Shown here piece after piece: positions 1-60,839 of a DNA stretch of 64,000 nucleotides. Under the pieces are notes generated by a model that was not told where the DNA came from, searched no databases, and saw only the letters and a list, made by a program, of their open reading frames with translations. This DNA comes from Myxococcota bacterium (GTDB taxonomy: Bacteria; Myxococcota_A; Polyangia; Nannocystales; Nannocystaceae): contig JBCCHT010000042.1 in assembly GCA_039028615.1 (NCBI GenBank), positions 1-64,000 of the forward strand, given 5' to 3'. Position numbers and translations under genes: made by a program. Every line of letters starts with the position of its first letter. The stretch's first letter is position 1.

Positions 1-821
1 GAGGGCTGAAGCGAAGCCGCGTAGGATGGAGGGGGCCCGGTCGCGCGGAGGCGGCCGCCGACACCCCTCGCGAAACACTCCGCTGCAACGGCCGCCGAGC
101 ACGTCCGGGGAGGGTTCCAGCCGTCAACAGGCGAGCCGCCCGTTCGAAGATTCTCAGCCCACCGCGAAGCACTCCCCCCCTTCGAACAAGCACCCAGGCC
201 CACATCACCCATCGCCAAGTCTCCGACCCCGGCCAAAGCACCCAGCATCGAAGCAAGCCTCCAATTCACTGCTGAAGCAGAGCGCCACAGTCGTTCGCTC
301 GGGAGACAGCGCGCGGGGAGGGCTGAAGCGAAGCCGCGTAGGATGGAGGGGGCCCGGTCGCGCGGAGGCGGCCGCCGACACCCCTCGCGAAACACTCGGC
401 TGAAACTGCCGCTGAGCACGTCCGGGGAGGGTTCCAGCCGTCAACAGGCGAGCCGCCCATTCGAAGATTCACCACCGTTCTCCAAGCACTCCCCTCCTCG
501 AACAAGCACCCAGGCCCACATCACCCATCGCCAAGGCTTCGACCCCCGCCAAAGCACCCCGCATCGAAGCAAGCCTCCAACTCATTGCTGAAGCAGAGCC
601 CCACAGTCGTTCGAACGGGGGAAGCCGCGCGGGGAGGGCTGAAGCGAAGCCGCGTAGGATGGAGGGGGCCCGGTCGCGCGGAGGCGGCCCCCGACACCCC
701 TCGCAAAACACTCGGTTGCAACGGCCGCTGAGCACGTCCGGGGAGGGTTCCAGCCGTCAACAGGCGAGCCGCCCGTTCGAAGATTCTCAGCCCCCACGCG
801 AAGCACTCCCCTCTTCGAACA
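1..821. repeat. Tandem array of ~317-bp structured REP-like repeat units (about 2.6 copies visible, truncated by window start)
   Basis: GAGGGCTGAAGCGAAGCCGCGTAGGATGGAGGGGGCCCGG recurs at 1, 318 and 634 (periods 317 and 316). Units are near-identical along their full length, with a highly conserved ~130-nt core and a more variable C-rich tail. Confidence 0.95.
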
Positions 822-855: not shown

Positions 856-1746
856 TCAGGGCAACAAGTTCCCCACCACCTCGAGCTCACTAAACCCACC
901 ACAAGAGTTGTCCTCATGCCCGGAAAACTCCAACTCGAGCCGAACCCCATCCACCCCCGGATTCACGATCACCGGAGGATCCGGCGTGTTCTCCAGCAAC
1001 TGCATGTGCTGAAACACCACCTGATCCTCCGAGTCATAGACCCGCACGACCACGTTGCCGAACCCAAACCCCGTCTGGAACCCCTGGTTCGCATGCAGCC
1101 CGTTGCCCGTGATCAAGATCTGCGAAAAGCAGATCGGATCCACGACCGACCAGGTGTAGTGCGTCGGCTGCCCCCCCGGCTCGGGCCCGGACGAGAACCA
1201 CGAGGTGGTCAGGTCGTCGTCCACGGACAGGAAGGCATGGAAGTCGTCGTTGAAGGTGGACTCGGCCACCGCGACGCCCATGGGGGTGAGGTCCACGGGA
1301 TCACCGAGACAACCCTTCGGCTCCCCGGTGGTGGTCCCGGGGTCGTCGTCACCCGTGGTGGTGCCCCCGTCGGTGGCGTCATCGACGGGCAGGGTATCCA
1401 CGCCCGTCTCGGTGCTGGAGGGGTCGACGCCGGAAGAGCTGCCTTCGCCTTCGCCCTCACCCGCTTCGCTGCTACCCGCGCTGGGGTCGACGCCGCCGGC
1501 TGGCGCGGGGACGCAGCTGCCGTCGGCGGTGCTCCACGCGGTGACGCAGCCGGGGTCGGCGTAGACGCAGGTCTGCTCCGCTTGCACGCAGATGCCGGGC
1601 GCTCCGTCGAAGACGCAGTCGGTGTCGTCGGCACAGGCAAAGGGGTCGATGGTGAGGCAGCCGGCGAGCACACCGAGGCCGAGGCCGGCCCACAGCTCCC
1701 GCGAGAGGAGGCGCGATCGAAGAGCATTTCGCCAAGCCGAGTGCAT
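856..1746 (-). CDS. Lipoprotein with Cys-rich N-terminal motif, Ser/Thr/Gly/Asp-rich linker and C-terminal discoidin/galactose-binding-like domain
   Basis: ATG at 1746 lies just after the upstream stop (1752). Lipobox GVLAGC, low-complexity linker, then a SVDDDLTTSWFS motif resembling F5/8-type C domains. Confidence 0.65.
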   Translation of the reverse strand: MHSAWRNALRSRLLSRELWAGLGLGVLAGCLTIDPFACADDTDCVFDGAPGICVQAEQTCVYADPGCVTAWSTADGSCVPAPAGGVDPSAGSSEAGEGEGEGSSSGVDPSSTETGVDTLPVDDATDGGTTTGDDDPGTTTGEPKGCLGDPVDLTPMGVAVAESTFNDDFHAFLSVDDDLTTSWFSSGPEPGGQPTHYTWSVVDPICFSQILITGNGLHANQGFQTGFGFGNVVVRVYDSEDQVVFQHMQLLENTPDPPVIVNPGVDGVRLELEFSGHEDNSCGGFSELEVVGNLLP

Positions 1747-17482: not shown

Positions 17483-18823
17483 TCAACCCGCGCACGACAG
17501 CGCGGTGCTCTCGATCGTCCGCCCCGGCCCTCGCGGCTCCACCATGCGAGACACCCGAGGCTCGTCGACCTCCACCACGCCGTGGATCGCCCGCAGCTCG
17601 GGATCCTTGTGCTCCCGAATGATCCGAAACAGCCCATTGTCGAAGGGCCGCGCCTCTTCCGACTGCGACACTTGCTCGATCCGCTCGCGCAGCCCCTGCC
17701 GATCCATCTCCATCGCTCGATGGTGGCAAAACGGGTTGTTCCCCGGCCGCCCCAGCAGCGGCTCGGCCGCAGCGGTGCAGCCCGCCATGCAGGTCTCCGC
17801 GTAGTAGCAGCCGCGACAGAACCCCCACAGGTCGTCCACCGTTCGGCTGCGTATGTAGCCCAGCTGATAGCTCTGATCCCAGATCTTCTTCACCCCGTGC
17901 TCACGCCACGAGCCGCCGACATTGTTGGGGCCACCGAGGCTGGGACAGCTCTTGATCATCCCGTTGCTCTCGATGCCCATCGTCGTTACACCCGCCGAGC
18001 ACCCGCGGAAGTGCTTGTTCTGAGACGCCCGCAGCTTCTGCTCCAGCGGACCGAAGTACCCGAGGTTGTTGCCCGGCCAGATCCTCACCCCGAGCTCGCG
18101 CGCCCGGTCGAGCACCCGGTCGAGCACCTCGAACAGCTCGAGGAACATGTAGGGCTGCAAGATCAGCTCGGGATGATCGGCCGCGTTCCCGTGCGGCACC
18201 GTGATCTGCAGCTGCCACGAGTGGATCCCCTCGGCGGCCAACAGCTCCAGCAACGGCAGCAGGTCCGGCATGGTCAGCGCGTTGAGCTGCGTGTTGCAGG
18301 CGATCTTCCCGCCCGCCGCCTTCACGTTGCGCAGAGCCTGGAACGCCGACTGCCAGCTCCCTTCGACTCCGCGCACATGATCATGGTGCTCCTCGAGCCC
18401 GTCGATCGAGACCGTCACGCTCCCGATCCCCGCCTCGACCATCGCCTCCGCGCGCTCCTTGGTCAGCCCGCGTCCACCCGTGGTCATCGTGCAGGCCATC
18501 CCTTTTTCCCGGATCCGCCGCGCCACCAAGATGAAGTCGTTGCGCAGGTACGCCTCGCCACCGATGAGCACCACCTCGCCCAGTCCGAGCTCCGCCAGCT
18601 CGTCCACCAACGCGAACGCCTCCTCGGTCGTCAGCTCGTCCTTCCGCCGCTTTCCCGCGCGCGGCCCGCAATGCGCACACCGCTGATCGCACGCCAAGGT
18701 CAGCTCCCAGATCGCCCACCGCGGCCGCGGCGACTCCCCCCGTTGCTGCGAATTCCAGCGCGTACCGGGGCTGGGCAGGTGGTCGACGATAGGGAGACGG
18801 CGGCGAGCAGATTCCAAGCGCAT
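17483..18823 (-). CDS. Radical SAM/SPASM peptide or protein maturase, PlpX (splicease)/TIGR03913-like
   Basis: WELTLACDQRCAHC (CxxxCxxC), IGGE, MTTGG, WQLQITVPHGNAAD and PGNNLGYFGP. SPASM cysteines CSAG..SCP..FCRGC...CMAGC...GNNPFCHHR. Confidence 0.9.
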   Translation of the reverse strand: MRLESARRRLPIVDHLPSPGTRWNSQQRGESPRPRWAIWELTLACDQRCAHCGPRAGKRRKDELTTEEAFALVDELAELGLGEVVLIGGEAYLRNDFILVARRIREKGMACTMTTGGRGLTKERAEAMVEAGIGSVTVSIDGLEEHHDHVRGVEGSWQSAFQALRNVKAAGGKIACNTQLNALTMPDLLPLLELLAAEGIHSWQLQITVPHGNAADHPELILQPYMFLELFEVLDRVLDRARELGVRIWPGNNLGYFGPLEQKLRASQNKHFRGCSAGVTTMGIESNGMIKSCPSLGGPNNVGGSWREHGVKKIWDQSYQLGYIRSRTVDDLWGFCRGCYYAETCMAGCTAAAEPLLGRPGNNPFCHHRAMEMDRQGLRERIEQVSQSEEARPFDNGLFRIIREHKDPELRAIHGVVEVDEPRVSRMVEPRGPGRTIESTALSCAG

Positions 18824-18986
18824 GACTACGCCCCCACGAGTGTCGACCTCCCCTGAACCGATCGGCCGGGCGCCGAAAAAAATCCAACGCGGCTCGTCTC
18901 ATGCGAGTGCACACCCCGACGACGCTTCGTCCCCGCCCGGCCCGCCGAGAGCATCGTGCTCCCACGCTCATGGGCGACCAGCTGGC

Positions 18987-19026
18987 AGCGAAGCCGCGAA
19001 GGATGGAGGGGGAGGGTTCCAGCCGT
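18987..19026. repeat. Internally deleted mini-copy of the REP-like repeat core
   Basis: AGCGAAGCCGCGAAGGATGGAGGGGGAGGGTTCCAGCCGT equals unit-1 positions 10-35 (one substitution) joined to positions 111-124. Confidence 0.8.
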
Positions 19027-19049
19027 TGCCTGGAGCGGAACTCAGGTTC

Positions 19050-20204
19050 TCAACCCTCGCCCGCAAGCACCCCCAGCAACCGAGGCCAAACGCCCATTTG
19101 CTCGCACCGCCGCTTCACCCCGTCCAAGGTCCACTCTCCCTGCTCCCCCTTCCGATGCGCCCGCAACATCAAGTTCTTCGGCGTGTGCTCACTCCCCACG
19201 AACTCGATCACATCCACCTGATACCCACACCCCTCGAGTACCTCCACCCGCAACCCGTCCGTCAACAACGCCCCATACTCCCGTCGCATCATTCCCCCCC
19301 GGACGAGCGCCGAGACGGGAGCCACCGCGTCGGAGGCTCGCTGGAGCTGCTCCGCCAGCTCCCGCTGACAGCACGGCGCGGCCAAGATCGAGCGAGCGCC
19401 CGTGCGAACGGCCAGGGCCAGTGCATCGTCGGTCGCGGTGTCACAGGCATGCAGCGCCACGACCAAGTCCGGCGCCCCCCCGAGCGGCGTCTGGTCCAGC
19501 GTCACTTCCTCGATCGCCCCCGCGGAGAAGCTCAACCCGTCGAACCCGAGGGTCTTCGCTCGCTCCGTACACTGGTCGACCAGCTCCGCCCGCCGGTCGA
19601 CCCCATGCAGTCGTACGGGGACCTCGGCCAGCCGCAGCGCCTCGGCGAGCACGAAGTCGAGGTAGCCGTTGCCACATCCGAGGTCGAGCACGCGCAGCGG
19701 CTCTTCGGTGGTCGCGGGCCGCTGCGCGATGAGCTTTGACCACACCGGTCGGCACAGCTCGACGAAGTGATTGACCTGCTTGTACTTCTTGGCGCTACGG
19801 GCCGAGATGCTGCCGTCGGCGTTCATGATGCCGATGACTTGCAGCAGCTTCGCGCTCTCGTCGGGTCGCAGGGCGCGGTCCTTGCCCCCCATGACCTTGC
19901 GAGCGCGCGAGTCGTCGAGCTCGATGACTTTGGCTTTGCCGTAGCGGGCGTCGATGCGAACGCGGCGTCGGGCGTCGATGACTAGGGTCTGTTTGATCCG
20001 GCCCTCGCGGGCGGCCGCCTCGGCGGCGTCGAGCAGTGCGTCGATCACGGGTGTGGCGGGTGCGCCAGGTCCCGGCCCCTCCAAGACTCGGGATGAAGCG
20101 TCGTCTTCGCCCGCGCGCGCAAAGACGGCACGGGTCCAACCCGCACGGGCGTGACGGGCAAGGGACTTGCGCAAACGAGCGATTGCGGCGCTGCGAAGCT
20201 TCAT
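19050..20204 (-). CDS. Class I SAM-dependent methyltransferase (Methyltransf_32-like)
   Basis: Motifs KKYKQVNHF, VLDLGCGNGYL, VALHACDTATD, APCC and EHTPKN. Confidence 0.9.
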   Translation of the reverse strand: MKLRSAAIARLRKSLARHARAGWTRAVFARAGEDDASSRVLEGPGPGAPATPVIDALLDAAEAAAREGRIKQTLVIDARRRVRIDARYGKAKVIELDDSRARKVMGGKDRALRPDESAKLLQVIGIMNADGSISARSAKKYKQVNHFVELCRPVWSKLIAQRPATTEEPLRVLDLGCGNGYLDFVLAEALRLAEVPVRLHGVDRRAELVDQCTERAKTLGFDGLSFSAGAIEEVTLDQTPLGGAPDLVVALHACDTATDDALALAVRTGARSILAAPCCQRELAEQLQRASDAVAPVSALVRGGMMRREYGALLTDGLRVEVLEGCGYQVDVIEFVGSEHTPKNLMLRAHRKGEQGEWTLDGVKRRCEQMGVWPRLLGVLAGEG

Positions 20205-56210: not shown

Positions 56211-57620
56211 ATGCGTGGCTTCGTTCTCGTCTTCGTGCTCACCCCGATGGTCCCCGCGTGCAGCGGCAACCGGGTGGTCCCGACCGCGGCCGAAGACACC
56301 GATGCGACCGGCACCACGGCGGCCGACACCCCCCTCGCCGAGTCGAGCACCAGCGCAGCCGTCGACGAGACCGGGGCGTCCACGGGCGAGCCGGCCGAAG
56401 ACCCCCAGTCGCTGTTCTACCTGACCGAGTTCCCCCACGAGCTGCGAACGATCGCGATCGACGGGACCGACGATCGCCTCCTCGTCGCGCACGCCGACTA
56501 CATCACAGAGTCGCGCTTCATCGCCGCGGGCAACGGAGTCGTCTTGGCCCACGGTGAGCTGCCGGGCAGCTCCATCGACGAGACGCTCTACGCCAACGTC
56601 GACGGCTCCGTCACCGGCCTGTACCAGGGCTTCGTCCCCGAGCGAGTCTGGTTCGGTCCCGAGCCCGAGCGGATCTGGTACCCGGAGGGGTGGTACGTCA
56701 CCAGCCGGCTGCTGGGTGAATCGGGCGAGACCTTCCCGACCGGCGGCGGGACCCTGTGGATGATGTCTCGAACCCGGCGCTTCGTGGCCTCGACCCACTT
56801 CGACGGCGGCACCTGGATCGGCGACCTGACCGGAGAGATCGCCGCCATGCACCTGCCCCCCGCGTGGCTCCCCGGGTGCGGCGGCGAGACTCGCCCCACC
56901 CTGTGGTTCAACCGAGATCAGACCCGGGTGCTGCTGTTCCCCACGCCGAGCCACAACCTCGCCCGCTTGCCCCTCGACGACCCGGAGGCGGGGGTCTGGC
57001 TCCCCCTCGGCCCCGAGTTTCGCCCCCTCGGCTACGACGTGTGCGCCGATGGCCTGCTGGGTCGCACCGAGGACGGCGCGATCATTCGCATCGGAGACGA
57101 CGCCAGCGTGGCCGAGCTCGCCCCGCCCGGCCCCTCCTTCCCCGCCGAGTTTCCGTTCGAGTACGGCGTCACGCCCAGTGCACGTCGCGTCGTCGCTCTC
57201 ACCACCGACGGCTCGCGACAGCTCCACCTCGCCAACCTCTCCGCGCAGACCTGGACCACCGTCGAGCTCCCGCGCGGCTCCGGGACCCTCACCATCGTCA
57301 CCGTCGACGACGACTACGTGCTGCTCTCCGAGCACACCCGCGACGGCCAAGTCCTCGCCCATCGCCTGGATATCGACACGGGGGCGGTGGACTCGGCGGC
57401 GACCTGCGACGTGCTCGTCCCCGCCATGACCGAAGACGGCGCCCTGCTGCTGTGTGAAGAGGCCACCGAGGGGCTCACCCTCCTCGTCGAAAAGCCGGGT
57501 GAAGCCGCCTCCGTCCTCCTGGACGAGGTCGCCGATGCCAGGCTCATGCCCGCGCCCGCCCAGGTAGACGCGCGTTGCGTCGACACCGAGCCCGTCGACA
57601 CCCTGGTGGGCTGCTGGTAG
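56211..57620 (+). CDS. Hypothetical lipoprotein, possibly beta-propeller
   Basis: Lipobox VPAC, Thr/Ala/Glu linker and a beta-rich body. Confidence 0.65.
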   Translation: MRGFVLVFVLTPMVPACSGNRVVPTAAEDTDATGTTAADTPLAESSTSAAVDETGASTGEPAEDPQSLFYLTEFPHELRTIAIDGTDDRLLVAHADYITESRFIAAGNGVVLAHGELPGSSIDETLYANVDGSVTGLYQGFVPERVWFGPEPERIWYPEGWYVTSRLLGESGETFPTGGGTLWMMSRTRRFVASTHFDGGTWIGDLTGEIAAMHLPPAWLPGCGGETRPTLWFNRDQTRVLLFPTPSHNLARLPLDDPEAGVWLPLGPEFRPLGYDVCADGLLGRTEDGAIIRIGDDASVAELAPPGPSFPAEFPFEYGVTPSARRVVALTTDGSRQLHLANLSAQTWTTVELPRGSGTLTIVTVDDDYVLLSEHTRDGQVLAHRLDIDTGAVDSAATCDVLVPAMTEDGALLLCEEATEGLTLLVEKPGEAASVLLDEVADARLMPAPAQVDARCVDTEPVDTLVGCW

Positions 57621-59174
57621 TCAGCGTGCGATCGCGTCCGCGATGCGAATGCCGTCGAGCGCCGCGCTCATGATCCCGCCCGCGTAGCCCGCTCCTTCAC
57701 CGCACGGGTAGAGCCCCGCCACCGACGGCGATTGCAGGCTCTCGCGATCTCGATCGGTGCGCACGGGCGCGCTGGTCCGGGACTCCACCCCCACCGCGAT
57801 CCCTTCCGCCGACACGAAGCCCGGCATGCGCTCCCCGATGCGTCGCAGCGCCTCGCGCAGCGGCAGCGCCAGCCCGCCCAGCAGCTCGTCGAGCCGAGCC
57901 GAGGCCAGCCCTCGCGGGTAGCTGCAGACCGGCAACGCCGACGAGCTCCGTCCCGCCACGAAGTCGTCGATCCGCTGCGCGGGCGCGACATAGTCCCCGC
58001 CCCCCGCCTCGTACGCCGCCGCCTCGATCCGTCGCTGCAGCTTCAACCCCGCGAACACGTCGCTCGGATCGAGGCCCGCCGCCTCGAGCTGCGTCGGTCC
58101 GACCTCCGTCACGAACCCCGAGTTCGCGTACTTGCCTCGCCGTGACGAAGGGCTCCAGCCGTTGACCACCTGTCCCCCGTGCTCCGTCGCGGCCGGCACG
58201 ATGAACCCTCCCGGGCACATGCAGAACGAAAACGCTCCCGCGCCTTCCGCCTGCTCCACCAGACGATAGGCCGCGGCTCCCAGCGCCGGGTGCCCCGCCA
58301 GCCCTCCGAACTGCAGCCCATCGATCAACGGCTGCGGATGCTCCACCCGGAACCCCACCGCAAACGGCTTCGCCGACAACGCCACCCCGGCCTCGTGCAG
58401 CCACTGCGTCACATCCCGGGCCGAGTGTCCCACCGCCAGCACCACCGCCCGCGCATCGATCGTCTCCTGCTCCAGCCGCACCCCGCACACGCGCCCGTCC
58501 TTCACCACCAGCCCATCGACGCGCCGCCCGAACGCAAACTCCACCCCCGCGCTTTCGAGATGCTCCCGCATCGCCCCCACCACGCCGGGCAGGCGATTGG
58601 TCCCGATATGCGGCCGCGCATCCACCAAGATCTGCGACGGCGCCCCGTACCCCACGAACGCATCCAGCACCCGCTGCATGTCCCCCCGCTTGTGCGATCG
58701 CGTGTACAGCTTCCCATCGCTGAACGTCCCCGCCCCTCCCTCACCAAAACAGTAGTTGCTCTCCGGATCGAGCTGCCCCTGCTTGCTCAGCGCCGCCAGA
58801 TCCCGCCGTCGTGGCCGAACCGGCTTCCCCCGCTCCAGCACCACCGACCGAATCCCATGCTGCGCCAACGCCCACGCACAAAACGTCCCCGCCGGCCCCG
58901 CCCCCACGATCACCACCCCGGGTTCCCCACTCAACGTCGGAAGATCCACCGGCCCCCGCTCACTCGAGCTCGGCTTCTCTTCCCCCCGCATCACCAACTC
59001 CACCTCCAGCTGCAGCTGCACCCGCCCCCGCCGAGCATCGATCGACTTCCGCCGAACAACCGCCGCCACAACCTCCTTCACCCCCACCTTCCCCCGCTTC
59101 GCCGCCGCCCGACGCAGCCCCTCCTCATCAAAAAGAAGATCTGGATGAACCCGCAACTGAACCCGACGTCCCAC
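57621..59174 (-). CDS. FAD-dependent dehydrogenase (COG2509-like)
   Basis: Motifs GAGPAG, FGEGGAGTFSDGKL, PHIGT, FCMCPGG and GEGAGYAGGIMSAALDG. Confidence 0.92.
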   Translation of the reverse strand: MGRRVQLRVHPDLLFDEEGLRRAAAKRGKVGVKEVVAAVVRRKSIDARRGRVQLQLEVELVMRGEEKPSSSERGPVDLPTLSGEPGVVIVGAGPAGTFCAWALAQHGIRSVVLERGKPVRPRRRDLAALSKQGQLDPESNYCFGEGGAGTFSDGKLYTRSHKRGDMQRVLDAFVGYGAPSQILVDARPHIGTNRLPGVVGAMREHLESAGVEFAFGRRVDGLVVKDGRVCGVRLEQETIDARAVVLAVGHSARDVTQWLHEAGVALSAKPFAVGFRVEHPQPLIDGLQFGGLAGHPALGAAAYRLVEQAEGAGAFSFCMCPGGFIVPAATEHGGQVVNGWSPSSRRGKYANSGFVTEVGPTQLEAAGLDPSDVFAGLKLQRRIEAAAYEAGGGDYVAPAQRIDDFVAGRSSSALPVCSYPRGLASARLDELLGGLALPLREALRRIGERMPGFVSAEGIAVGVESRTSAPVRTDRDRESLQSPSVAGLYPCGEGAGYAGGIMSAALDGIRIADAIAR

Positions 59175-59314
59175 GACTTCCCCCCGTCATCTCATGAACC
59201 CGCCCCCCGGTCCATCCACCCACCACCCCCGAAGGGAACAACACCCACCCTGCTCCAAACAAGTACCCCACGGCAAAACCCACCCCATCCCCGAGCAGCA
59301 ACCAACCGACCCCT

Positions 59315-59660
59315 TCGTTCGAACATTTCCACCCACTCCAAGCACTCCCGCCCCTCACCCAAGCACCCCACCGAACCTCCAAGCAAGCCACCCCCCACCC
59401 AAGCAGAACCCACCCCACCGCCCGAACGGAAGCCGCCGTACGGGGAGGGCCAAAGCGAAGCCGCGTAGGATGGAGGGGGCCCGGTCGCGCGGAGGCGGCC
59501 GCCGACGACCGTCGAGAAACACCCGGGTATCATGGCCGCCGAGCACGTCCGGGAAGGGTTCCAGCCGTCAACAGGCGAGCCCCTGGTTCGAACACATCAC
59601 TCCCACTCCAAGCACTCCCGCCCCTCACCCAAGCACCCCACCGAGCTCTCCGTTCGAACA
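59315..59660. repeat. Dispersed copy of the REP-like repeat with duplicated C-rich flanks
   Basis: Core GGGGAGGGC..AAGCGAAGCCGCGTAGGATGGAGGGGGCCCGG...GGGTTCCAGCCGTCAACAGGCGAGC at ~59442-59580. A 43-nt direct repeat occurs at 59332 and 59602. Confidence 0.92.
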
Positions 59661-59711
59661 CTCCCCAACCCCCCTTCGCGCAACCAGAAATCCCCCCACC
59701 GCGAGCAAACT

Positions 59712-60839
59712 TCAAGACCCCGAAGAAGGCCCAGACGCCACCAACAACCCCGCCGCCACCGCCTTGCTCCGCATCGCATGCAACATCCGTCCCCGGTCCG
59801 CCGTATCCCGCCTCCACTTCCTCCCAAGCTTCGCCCGCACATCCGGGTTCAACCCCAACCTCCGAGCCCGCTTCCGAAAGTTCGCATTCGGCCCCACCGT
59901 CGCACAGTGCCCCCGCGAGAACCGACGATTCACCGTCGCATACGAATCCCCAAACCCTTGCGCCTCACACTCCCGCTGCGCCGTCCGAGCGGCCCAAACC
60001 GCGGTGATGATCGCCACCAACCCGTTGTCATCACAAAACACCCAAGGCGGCGCACTCGAATCCCAAACCGGCACAAAGTACGCCGGATTAAACCCAAAGG
60101 GCCCGTATCCAAATGCCCACGCCGGCTCCGACCCCGGCGAGACCGAGCCGTCCGTCGCCGTCACCTCGAACTCGATGATGTCGTCGAGATACGGGTTGTC
60201 GCGAAAGGTCTGCACCTGATGCAGCCGCGCCTTCGCCTTCCAGTACTCGCTGTCCTGCTTGCTCAACTTGGCCATGTGGGCCTGCAGCTCCGCCTCTTCG
60301 GTCGGCGAGTAGTGCAGGCGTCTCCATGCCGCGGTCGCGGCCTCGATGTCGGGATTGAGCACGTGCATGGCGTGCGGCCGATAGGTCGACTCCCGCATCG
60401 CCCACGCTCGAATCAGCCGCGGCTCGGCCCCCATCTCCTTGGCGACCAAGGTCACCAATTGAGAGAAGCGCTTCTCGTCGGCCTTGGTCCACGGACGACG
60501 GACTCGCTTGTAGCGACGACGACCCTCGTCATCGATCTTCACCCGCACGCGCTCGCACTGGTTGGGCGCACGACCCTTCAGGGTGGCTCCCTTGGCGGAG
60601 GCCAGCACGGGGGTGGGAGCCTCGGCGGCAGACGGAGCGCCCGCCTCGGTACCTTCGTCGGCATCGGCGGCCGCAACCACGGGCTGCGTTCGGGTCTCGG
60701 TGGCCGGATCTCCGGGGCTCGACGGAGCATCGACGTGCTCGACCTCGGCCTCCACGTGAACGACCTCGTACTCGGGCTCGCCCCCGGGGCCACACGATAC
60801 GACAGCGAAGATGCAGCCAAGCACGATAGCTCTGCCCAT
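59712..60839 (-). CDS. Hypothetical lipoprotein with a possible lytic-transglycosylase-like motif
   Basis: Lipobox VVSC. LIRAWAMRESTYRPHA resembles SLT motif I. Confidence 0.6.
   Translation of the reverse strand: MGRAIVLGCIFAVVSCGPGGEPEYEVVHVEAEVEHVDAPSSPGDPATETRTQPVVAAADADEGTEAGAPSAAEAPTPVLASAKGATLKGRAPNQCERVRVKIDDEGRRRYKRVRRPWTKADEKRFSQLVTLVAKEMGAEPRLIRAWAMRESTYRPHAMHVLNPDIEAATAAWRRLHYSPTEEAELQAHMAKLSKQDSEYWKAKARLHQVQTFRDNPYLDDIIEFEVTATDGSVSPGSEPAWAFGYGPFGFNPAYFVPVWDSSAPPWVFCDDNGLVAIITAVWAARTAQRECEAQGFGDSYATVNRRFSRGHCATVGPNANFRKRARRLGLNPDVRAKLGRKWRRDTADRGRMLHAMRSKAVAAGLLVASGPSSGS

Follow-up and report, generated by a model that had tools for sequence, protein, structure and literature searches.

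The DNA considered here is the first 64,000 nucleotides (hereafter the window) of contig C42 in the 12.27-Mb, 94-contig genome of a bacterium of the Myxococcota (genome label G000), and its subject is a short intergenic repeat together with the skewed base composition, which we call a halo, of the genes on either side of it. The repeat, a non-coding, interrupted hairpin of ~160 nt, is present as a full copy of its family A at 59436..59598 on the plus strand, recognized by a covariance-model match of 134 bits and by its structure and covariation. Two 69-nt direct repeats that are 90% alike (59307-59374 and 59576-59644, plus strand) bracket this copy as a 269-nt unit within 59307..59644 and share 43 nt exactly at 59332/59602. 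On the 5' side of the hairpin lies a minus-strand gene for a FAD-dependent oxidoreductase (57621..59174; assigned by Pfam, with 19 orthologues), while on its 3' side a conserved minus-strand gene without a Pfam family (59712..60839) points towards it. Throughout, the strand that bears the repeat in its window orientation is called ‘top’ and the complementary strand ‘bottom’.

Around this copy, over approximately 57000..60350, the minus strand is poor in C and A and rich in G and T. Over 58001-60000 the plus-strand GC skew drops to between -0.29 and -0.43, lower than in any other of the 128 intervals across the window, with AT skew reaching +0.41 (over 59001-60000, GC skew -0.43 and -0.40, AT skew +0.41 and +0.24), and smaller dips in plus-strand GC skew occur at 501-1000 and 17501-19500. 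The shift is plain in the synonymous codons. Genome-wide, C occupies a fraction of 0.51 of fourfold-degenerate sites; in the oxidoreductase gene, which lies in the long 5'-side halo, it occupies 0.00-0.04 in the first 150 codons and then recovers outward from the repeat (0.02, 0.02, 0.16, 0.13, 0.19, 0.30), and in the opposite gene, the last ~120-150 codons of which lie in the short 3'-side halo, it is 0.11 and then 0.00 over the last 150 codons.

Comparison with orthologues ties this shift to the presence of the repeat. The 19 orthologues of the oxidoreductase gene have a fourfold C of 0.21-0.82 in any bin, and none of their loci carries the repeat. Within codons 1-170, at the 12 fourfold sites where the relatives agree on C, the gene in the window has G at 10, A at one and T at one, and at twofold sites where they agree on C it has T in five of ten. 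The last 120 codons of gene 59712-60839 have a fourfold C of 0.03, against 0.28-0.44 in six orthologues. One relative, G004, has an empty site in which the same two genes stand ~50 nt apart rather than the 537 nt seen here, with normal codons in both. The reciprocal test, made at nine loci (three from genomes besides G004 gave no qualifying orthologue), showed a shift in seven of nine genes beside G004 copies of the repeat when these were set against the corresponding G000 orthologues (0.12 vs 0.59 and 0.16 vs 0.51 in two instances). The halo therefore follows insertion, given the normal codons of repeat-free orthologues and the positive reciprocal result for seven of these nine genes. Contigs from the sequencing runs contained no usable strain variants; one contig of run X1 skips 59332-59601, which may be either a real empty allele or an assembly shortcut, since the 43-nt exact repeat brackets that stretch.

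The remaining copies in the window are likewise on the plus strand. Three tandem copies with a period of ~316 nt (1-154, 309-471 and 625-787; 1..787) open the contig, and the minus-strand gene that ends beside them (856..1746) has a fourfold C of 0.63, 0.64, 0.41 and 0.20 towards the repeat. At 18969..19056 lies an internally deleted relic, a weak model match (E 2e-4) recognized by sequence, whose inner stem is gone between two G-rich direct repeats. A methyltransferase gene assigned by Pfam (19050..20048, minus strand) has a weaker halo at its 3' end (fourfold C 0.64 down to 0.17), and on the 5' side of the relic a radical SAM/SPASM gene, also assigned by Pfam (17483..18823, minus strand), has a fourfold C of 0.17-0.33 throughout, a codon shift compatible with a long 5' halo. 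An earlier note on this DNA, made from the sequence alone, had pointed to T/G-ending codons near the repeat and to a common polarity at three loci; the seven codon strings that it quoted are all on the minus strand (60084-60098, 60030-60041, 59127-59150, 889-906, 1609-1629, 19263-19277 and 19221-19232), and the polarity indeed matches the shared orientation of the copies. Its third locus, near 19 kb, does have a halo, albeit a weaker one beside a relic: the last 120 codons there have a fourfold C of 0.23, against 0.23-0.62 in nine orthologues.

A profile search of the genome gave 108 matches in 69 clusters and a covariance model gave 94; further families found at skew hot spots, C (17 matches) and D (20), align loosely with the first. 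The ends of contigs C42, C43, C50, C55, C58, C18, C21, C40 and others fall inside the repeat, so that the copy number is a lower bound and a partner gene may have gone unassembled. Genes were called with our own amino-acid-pair model (9577 calls, of which 8504 were used). In bottom-strand genes downstream of a copy, fourfold C rises with distance over successive 200-nt bins (0.18, 0.23, 0.37, 0.49; background 0.51) as twofold T falls (0.55, 0.49, 0.29, 0.20; background 0.17), and twofold A is 0.05 and 0.08 (background 0.16). Top-strand genes upstream show the complementary change, with fourfold G at 0.09-0.19 out to 1.5 kb (background 0.39) and twofold A up to 0.65. Where a 3' gene end adjoins a copy, fourfold C is 0.27 in bottom-strand genes (n=50), compared with 0.50 at repeat-free convergent ends (n=682), and 0.68 in top-strand genes (n=16); where a 5' end adjoins it, the values are 0.29 for the bottom strand (n=6) and 0.56 for the top (n=9, a weak shift). 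All four geometries of gene and element thus shift in one strand sense, one of them only weakly.

The sign of the skew is set by the repeat. Downstream of the outermost copies it is negative in 57 of 61, 9 of 11 and 19 of 20 cases in three families (85/92 together), and it lies below -0.2 at 60% of these 92 copies as against 0.6% of 7619 repeat-free gene ends. Halo depth is alike on the two replichores (-0.289, n=25, and -0.264, n=23, each copy being assigned from contig skew) and alike whether the downstream gene points towards the repeat (-0.20, n=77) or away from it (-0.23, n=15). At 19 lone clusters the two sides differ in reach: on the 3' side bottom-strand C stands at 0.26-0.33 of its background level through the first 500 nt and regains 1.0 by 750 nt, while on the 5' side it is 0.3-0.7 of background to 1250 nt and ~1 by 2-2.5 kb. 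Beyond the 3' edge, at 0.8-2.5 kb, the composition swings slightly past background (fourfold C 0.58-0.60 vs 0.51; up to ~1.2 of background). In all, the halo touches ~137 of the 8504 called genes. The halo, with its polarity and shape, is a genome-wide property that depends on the repeat but neither on transcription nor on the replichore, and the earlier note's expectations of decay with distance, of a sign that inverts with the element, of ordinary composition at repeat-free gaps and of normal codons in orthologues lacking the element are all borne out. Its picture of a two-sided C-depletion needs redrawing in two respects: both sides are affected but unequally, the 3' side ending at ~750 nt and the 5' side fading over ~2.3 kb, and A is lost along with C.

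An independent view comes from a hot-spot scan scored by halo codon frequencies and blind to position, which found 125 hot spots in the genome. Within 1.5 kb of a copy lie 62 of them, where 2.2% would be expected, and 61 of these 62 have the predicted sign; a further five are at two Y1 genes, discussed below, and six at contig ends. Strong skew tracts also occur inside genes with no repeat near (L221:1200-1900 in G000:C31, L222:1200-2200 in G000:C1 and L223:1400-2200 in G000:C14); such repeat-free tracts, of which the scan has 52, may be either GRINS-like, in the sense described below, or scars of lost copies. At L014:1820-2800 (G000:C11) a single-copy intergenic structured stretch ends in a short hairpin that is followed by a steep one-sided halo (skew -0.68).

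The bottom strand near the repeat loses C and A and gains G and T; at fourfold sites the balance of change runs mostly from C to G. At twofold sites the odds of C>T are similar across sequence contexts, with no strong dinucleotide context, and a deaminase with a TC preference was rejected on this ground; shifts from CTG to TTG probably explain why the loss at Leu CTN is weak. The encoded proteins are also affected, Lys standing at 0.034 vs 0.022 and Thr at 0.045 vs 0.055. Polarized singletons in duplicated flanks, which are few and not independent, lean in the expected direction on the top strand (T>C 12/190 vs A>G 8/706; G>A 13/1075 vs C>T 8/1108). The combination of C>T and A>G on one strand is what single-stranded exposure, or re-synthesis with uncorrected G-T wobble errors, produces.

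A family A copy has a GTAG-type motif at the foot of a long interrupted stem, which is capped by a variable loop and followed by a conserved 3' tail. The core stem-loop has 23 consensus pairs over ~120 columns, with large internal loops, and among 24 aligned family A/B copies the stem foot is GTAG in 18 and GCAG in six, families C and D being without GTAG. Pairing is kept in 96.9% of cells and ten pairs have changed on both sides, which exceeds all 500 shuffles and all slid controls, a score that is overstated because these 24 related sequences also served to predict the structure; on this alignment the stem appears to be maintained through compensatory changes. The folding energy of one copy is no better than that of shuffles on either strand, Rfam models gave no match at E up to 1 in 59000-60000, and covariation separates neither DNA from RNA nor one folding strand from the other. 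Copies sit mainly at gene 3' ends, and downstream genes converge on the repeat in 72 of 85 cases. There are 33 inverted pairs and 38 tandem neighbours; among opposite-orientation neighbours within 7 kb, 33 of 34 have their 5' sides inward, with spacers of 124-6521 nt that mostly fall in the range of the long halo. One such inverted pair of hairpin arrays, at G000:C50:91184-93182 (L219), surrounds an N-terminal fragment of a Mutator/IS256 transposase. At L020:1600-4710 an open reading frame of ~200 amino acids with no known family lies in an inverted duplication around one hairpin, with arms that are 86% alike and mirror-image skews, and at L043 a hairpin is followed by a distant homologue of it; as a candidate partner gene this reading frame was rejected, having no match in G000 and no Pfam family.

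The repeat model was run against 60 relatives, with 47 candidates scored per genome. Strong matches were found in G001 (at least 4), G002 (at least 38) and G004 (at least 10), weak ones in G023 (at least 14) and singly in three other relatives, and none in the other 53. A halo is directly evident at five of six G004 loci, and is weaker or mixed at those of G001 and G002. In G023 a diverged hairpin occupies both arms of a young palindromic unit of 1.2-1.6 kb (92-97% identical) that ends at CTAG; ~30 copies of this unit (L130:520-1910; L127-L156), with inverted arms of ~500 nt, often enclose a fragment of an IS1380-like transposase, and at L186 one arm of this type is joined instead to a truncated IS91-type gene. 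Among titled sequence records, those with the repeat motif are Myxococcales/Myxococcota genomes, and a pattern scan of metagenomes gave two loci; one, L042, matches by chance within coding DNA.

These results support the repeat as a local, cis-acting and orientation-dependent source of strand-specific mutation. Since polarity is set by the hairpin, something reads the hairpin in an oriented way, and we consider it an even chance that the hairpin would be, by analogy with known systems, a landing site for an HUH-type or similar nicking activity that is supplied in trans and opens a local tract. Under this proposal the repeat would be a small mobile element whose top strand folds into the hairpin and is acted on by a DNA-processing activity from elsewhere, in which a nicking enzyme of the HUH or a similar type would most likely be joined by a helicase or exonuclease. 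With each round, this activity would open a tract reaching from ~0.7 kb on the 3' side of the hairpin to 1-2.3 kb on its 5' side, in which the bottom strand would be either left single-stranded, so that C and A deaminate, or re-synthesized with uncorrected wobble errors. Both routes would lead to bottom-strand C>T and A>G, the GC pressure of the genome would turn much of the fourfold C loss into G, and long residence would rewrite the silent sites of host genes; the open tract would also account for new copies being inverted and on the 5' side. We infer, rather than observe, that the tract is opened by nicking or unwinding, which enzyme does so, and whether deamination or polymerase error follows. 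An HUH-type activity is favoured because E. coli TnpA-REP cuts REP-bearing single-stranded DNA in vitro at many sites spread across over 400 nt to either side of a GTAG hairpin, in the accessible text of PMC3333891, because the distribution of the repeat is REP-like and because both HUH genes of the genome lie in halos.

Those two genes are Y1/HUH genes that are weakly RAYT-like (34 bits vs a cut-off of 80 for NF047646), and their proteins (NHYH motif, 310 amino acids) resemble subclass 2.3 or 2.1, which lack REPs, as far as the accessible part of PMC6006769 describes them. The polarity of their halos is outward, as in inverted hairpin pairs (L001:250-3207 in G000:C13 and L012:900-3300 in G000:C8, mirror-image halos), and next to one Y1 gene the 3' third of trpS is rewritten to G/T-ending codons. 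The short inverted repeats that flank them differ from the hairpin, for which reason they were rejected as the cognate enzyme genes, and a search of 30 Y1 loci gave no credible hairpin match. Homologues turned up in G003 and G005, where no hairpin match was obtained, and none was found in G001, G002 and G004, which have one, a further ground for this rejection. Given these other end repeats, the halo-free Y1 loci of other genomes (below) and a presence that does not track the hairpin, RAYT as the cause of the halo is not supported. HUH nicking is reached by analogy, as no RAYT/Y1 gene flanked by the hairpin, of the kind that the earlier note proposed looking for, was found. The local mutator of that note accordingly stands as a cis-acting, orientation-dependent footprint, whereas the processes that it offered (HUH/RAYT nicking, an R-loop, helicase loading, fork stalling) are at most candidates for its source.

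Several observations weigh against the proposal. Of the 125 hot spots, 58 have no known element within 1.5 kb, namely the six at contig ends and 52 others. The sign is opposite at a few copies (C16:197481, C53:37511, C31:113654), mostly one of a close pair, and within the hairpin core rare alleles show the opposite tendency (on the top strand, C>T 15 in 49 columns and G>A 10 in 60). In the sequences compared, at the available divergence, C>G arising directly cannot be told from C>G via T. The ~30 young G023 units carry the hairpin without a halo (mean flank skew +0.014, 25/48 negative); either the halo builds slowly or the G023 variant makes none. No cognate enzyme gene turned up beside any copy: 109 neighbouring proteins include no recurrent family except two paralogue pairs and repeat proteins, and 14 cargo genes scanned between inverted copies are mutually unrelated and include no HUH family. 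Most of 28 Y1 loci in other genomes are without a halo, and Y1 was not found in the hairpin carriers G001, G004 and G023 by searches that can miss divergent Y1; in G003 a protein query gave a Y1 match and PF01797 gave none, so absence from relatives is not established. Y2/IS91 and IS1380 transposases were each rejected as partner, G000 having no PF04986 match and no IS1380 transposase. Among the Y2 loci searched, there is a single case of the hairpin next to Y2 sequence, and the gene in question is truncated; the intact Y2 loci examined are without it.

The strongest competitor, which we hold to be possible though rather unlikely, requires no element-specific nuclease: the hairpin would be a priming or helicase-loading signal for host proteins, comparable to ssi, primosome-assembly sites and single-strand origins, from which short strand-displacement synthesis would run towards the 5' side and leave the displaced bottom strand to deaminate. 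A start zone that is fixed and a run length that varies would suit the abrupt 3' edge and the long, gradual 5' tail, 5'-side inverted copies fit template switching onto the displaced strand, and no partner gene was found. By itself, however, this leaves the spread of the repeat unexplained, and the 3' halo sets in as far as 700 nt within unrelated host genes, where no fixed sequence marks its start. An RNA from, or targeted to, the repeat might instead form a persistent top-strand R-loop that displaces the bottom strand and may prime synthesis, an idea that we regard as improbable. Covariation does leave DNA or RNA and the folding strand undecided, and the transcripts of most downstream genes, being convergent, have bottom-strand sense; yet the downstream halo is equally strong when the gene points away, top-strand upstream genes lose bottom-strand C as well, and the window copy has no Rfam match. 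R-loops from host transcripts, one suggestion of the earlier note, are thus disfavoured because the halo is independent of neighbouring gene direction.

Selection rather than mutation, favouring a C-rich, G-poor top strand (for Rho loading, for instance) or a G-rich bottom strand, would suit a repeat found mainly at gene 3' ends and a fourfold change that keeps GC content by running mostly from C to G. We think it quite unlikely, since twofold sites lose GC (T 0.55 vs 0.17) and the change extends to hundreds of silent sites over 2-3 kb in any gene direction, with amino acids shifting too. Fork stalling at the hairpin, with restart or gap filling exposing one strand, seems slightly less credible still: a long stem could impede a polymerase and leading-strand skew shows a keto pattern of this type too, but the equal halo depth on both replichores disfavours this further suggestion of the earlier note, and a single sequence folds no better than shuffles. 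That the repeat merely prefers to insert into already skewed DNA, for which the 58 hot spots without a known element could be cited, is very improbable, given the normal G004 empty site, the normal G000 orthologues of G004 halo genes and the young G023 insertions in unskewed DNA.

Nicking or otherwise, an orientation-dependent mutational halo around a bacterial repeat was not found described in the literature searched, mostly without subscription papers and supplements. The closest published system in the accessible text is GRINS (2021), local, intense and coupled GC and TA skews in bacterial coding DNA that peak at the third position of codons, slightly shift the amino acids and have an unexplained origin for which deamination or wobble-type polymerase error was proposed (PMC8256042). 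Correlated GC/TA skew above a mean absolute value of 0.15 in coding DNA is found here too, over 59001-60000. GRINS are, however, duplicated coding regions of over 500 bp and over 80% identity that spread by gene conversion, whereas the two halo genes each have a single match in G000 and only the ~200-270-nt repeat is multicopy; moreover, that text names no cis-acting trigger (PMC8256042), whereas here an intergenic hairpin sets the skew by distance and orientation. The accessible text on REP, BIME and REPIN elements (PMC3333891, PMC8266576, PMC3733652, PMC6006769, PMC5581495) describes likenesses in intergenic position, mostly between convergent genes, high copy number, tandem arrays, inverted doublets and the GTAG/GCAG stem foot. 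REPs there are palindromes of 20-40 bp, as opposed to a heavily interrupted stem-loop of ~110-125 nt, and REPtrons carry a RAYT/TnpA-REP gene flanked by its cognate hairpin, which was not found here, though such a gene may be unassembled; the repeat is thus REP-like in distribution and falls outside REPs and REPtrons on size and cognate gene. The word ‘skew’ does not occur in the accessible text of three REP/RAYT papers searched for it.

Two broader phenomena share features with the halo. Replication leaves a strand asymmetry, a leading-strand excess of G+T that is paralleled in the mitochondrial heavy strand and arises by C>T and A>G on one strand; its keto signature is that of the halo, but it is chromosome-wide and weak here (leading vs lagging fourfold C 0.47 vs 0.54), whereas the halo acts over kilobases, is several times stronger and does not depend on the replichore. 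Rolling-circle elements such as IS91/ISCR and Helitrons have one fixed end and a variable run-on into flanking DNA, which recalls the G023 arm, with its CTAG end on the downstream side of the hairpin and its junctions to various cargo fragments. Unlike them, G000 has no Y2 transposase and no fixed end at its halo edges, and the intact Y2 loci examined lack the hairpin.

Silent-site composition in bacteria is usually ascribed to replichore, expression and selection, all of which a short intergenic repeat here overrides over ~3 kb. In the vicinity of such repeats, codon bias, dS and calls of horizontal transfer can also lead one astray. Tentatively, and with less confidence than we place in the landing site itself, these hairpins may form an undescribed class of cis-acting local mutators, at which kilobase-scale, one-directional strand displacement or gap repair outside normal replication would recode neighbouring genes and seed cargo-capturing inverted duplications; they would be the missing trigger of GRINS-like skews, and orphan hot spots would be scars of lost copies. 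The hairpin offers a testable cis trigger for the unexplained skews of the GRINS type, and the halo a fossil record of the place and strand of a non-canonical DNA transaction.

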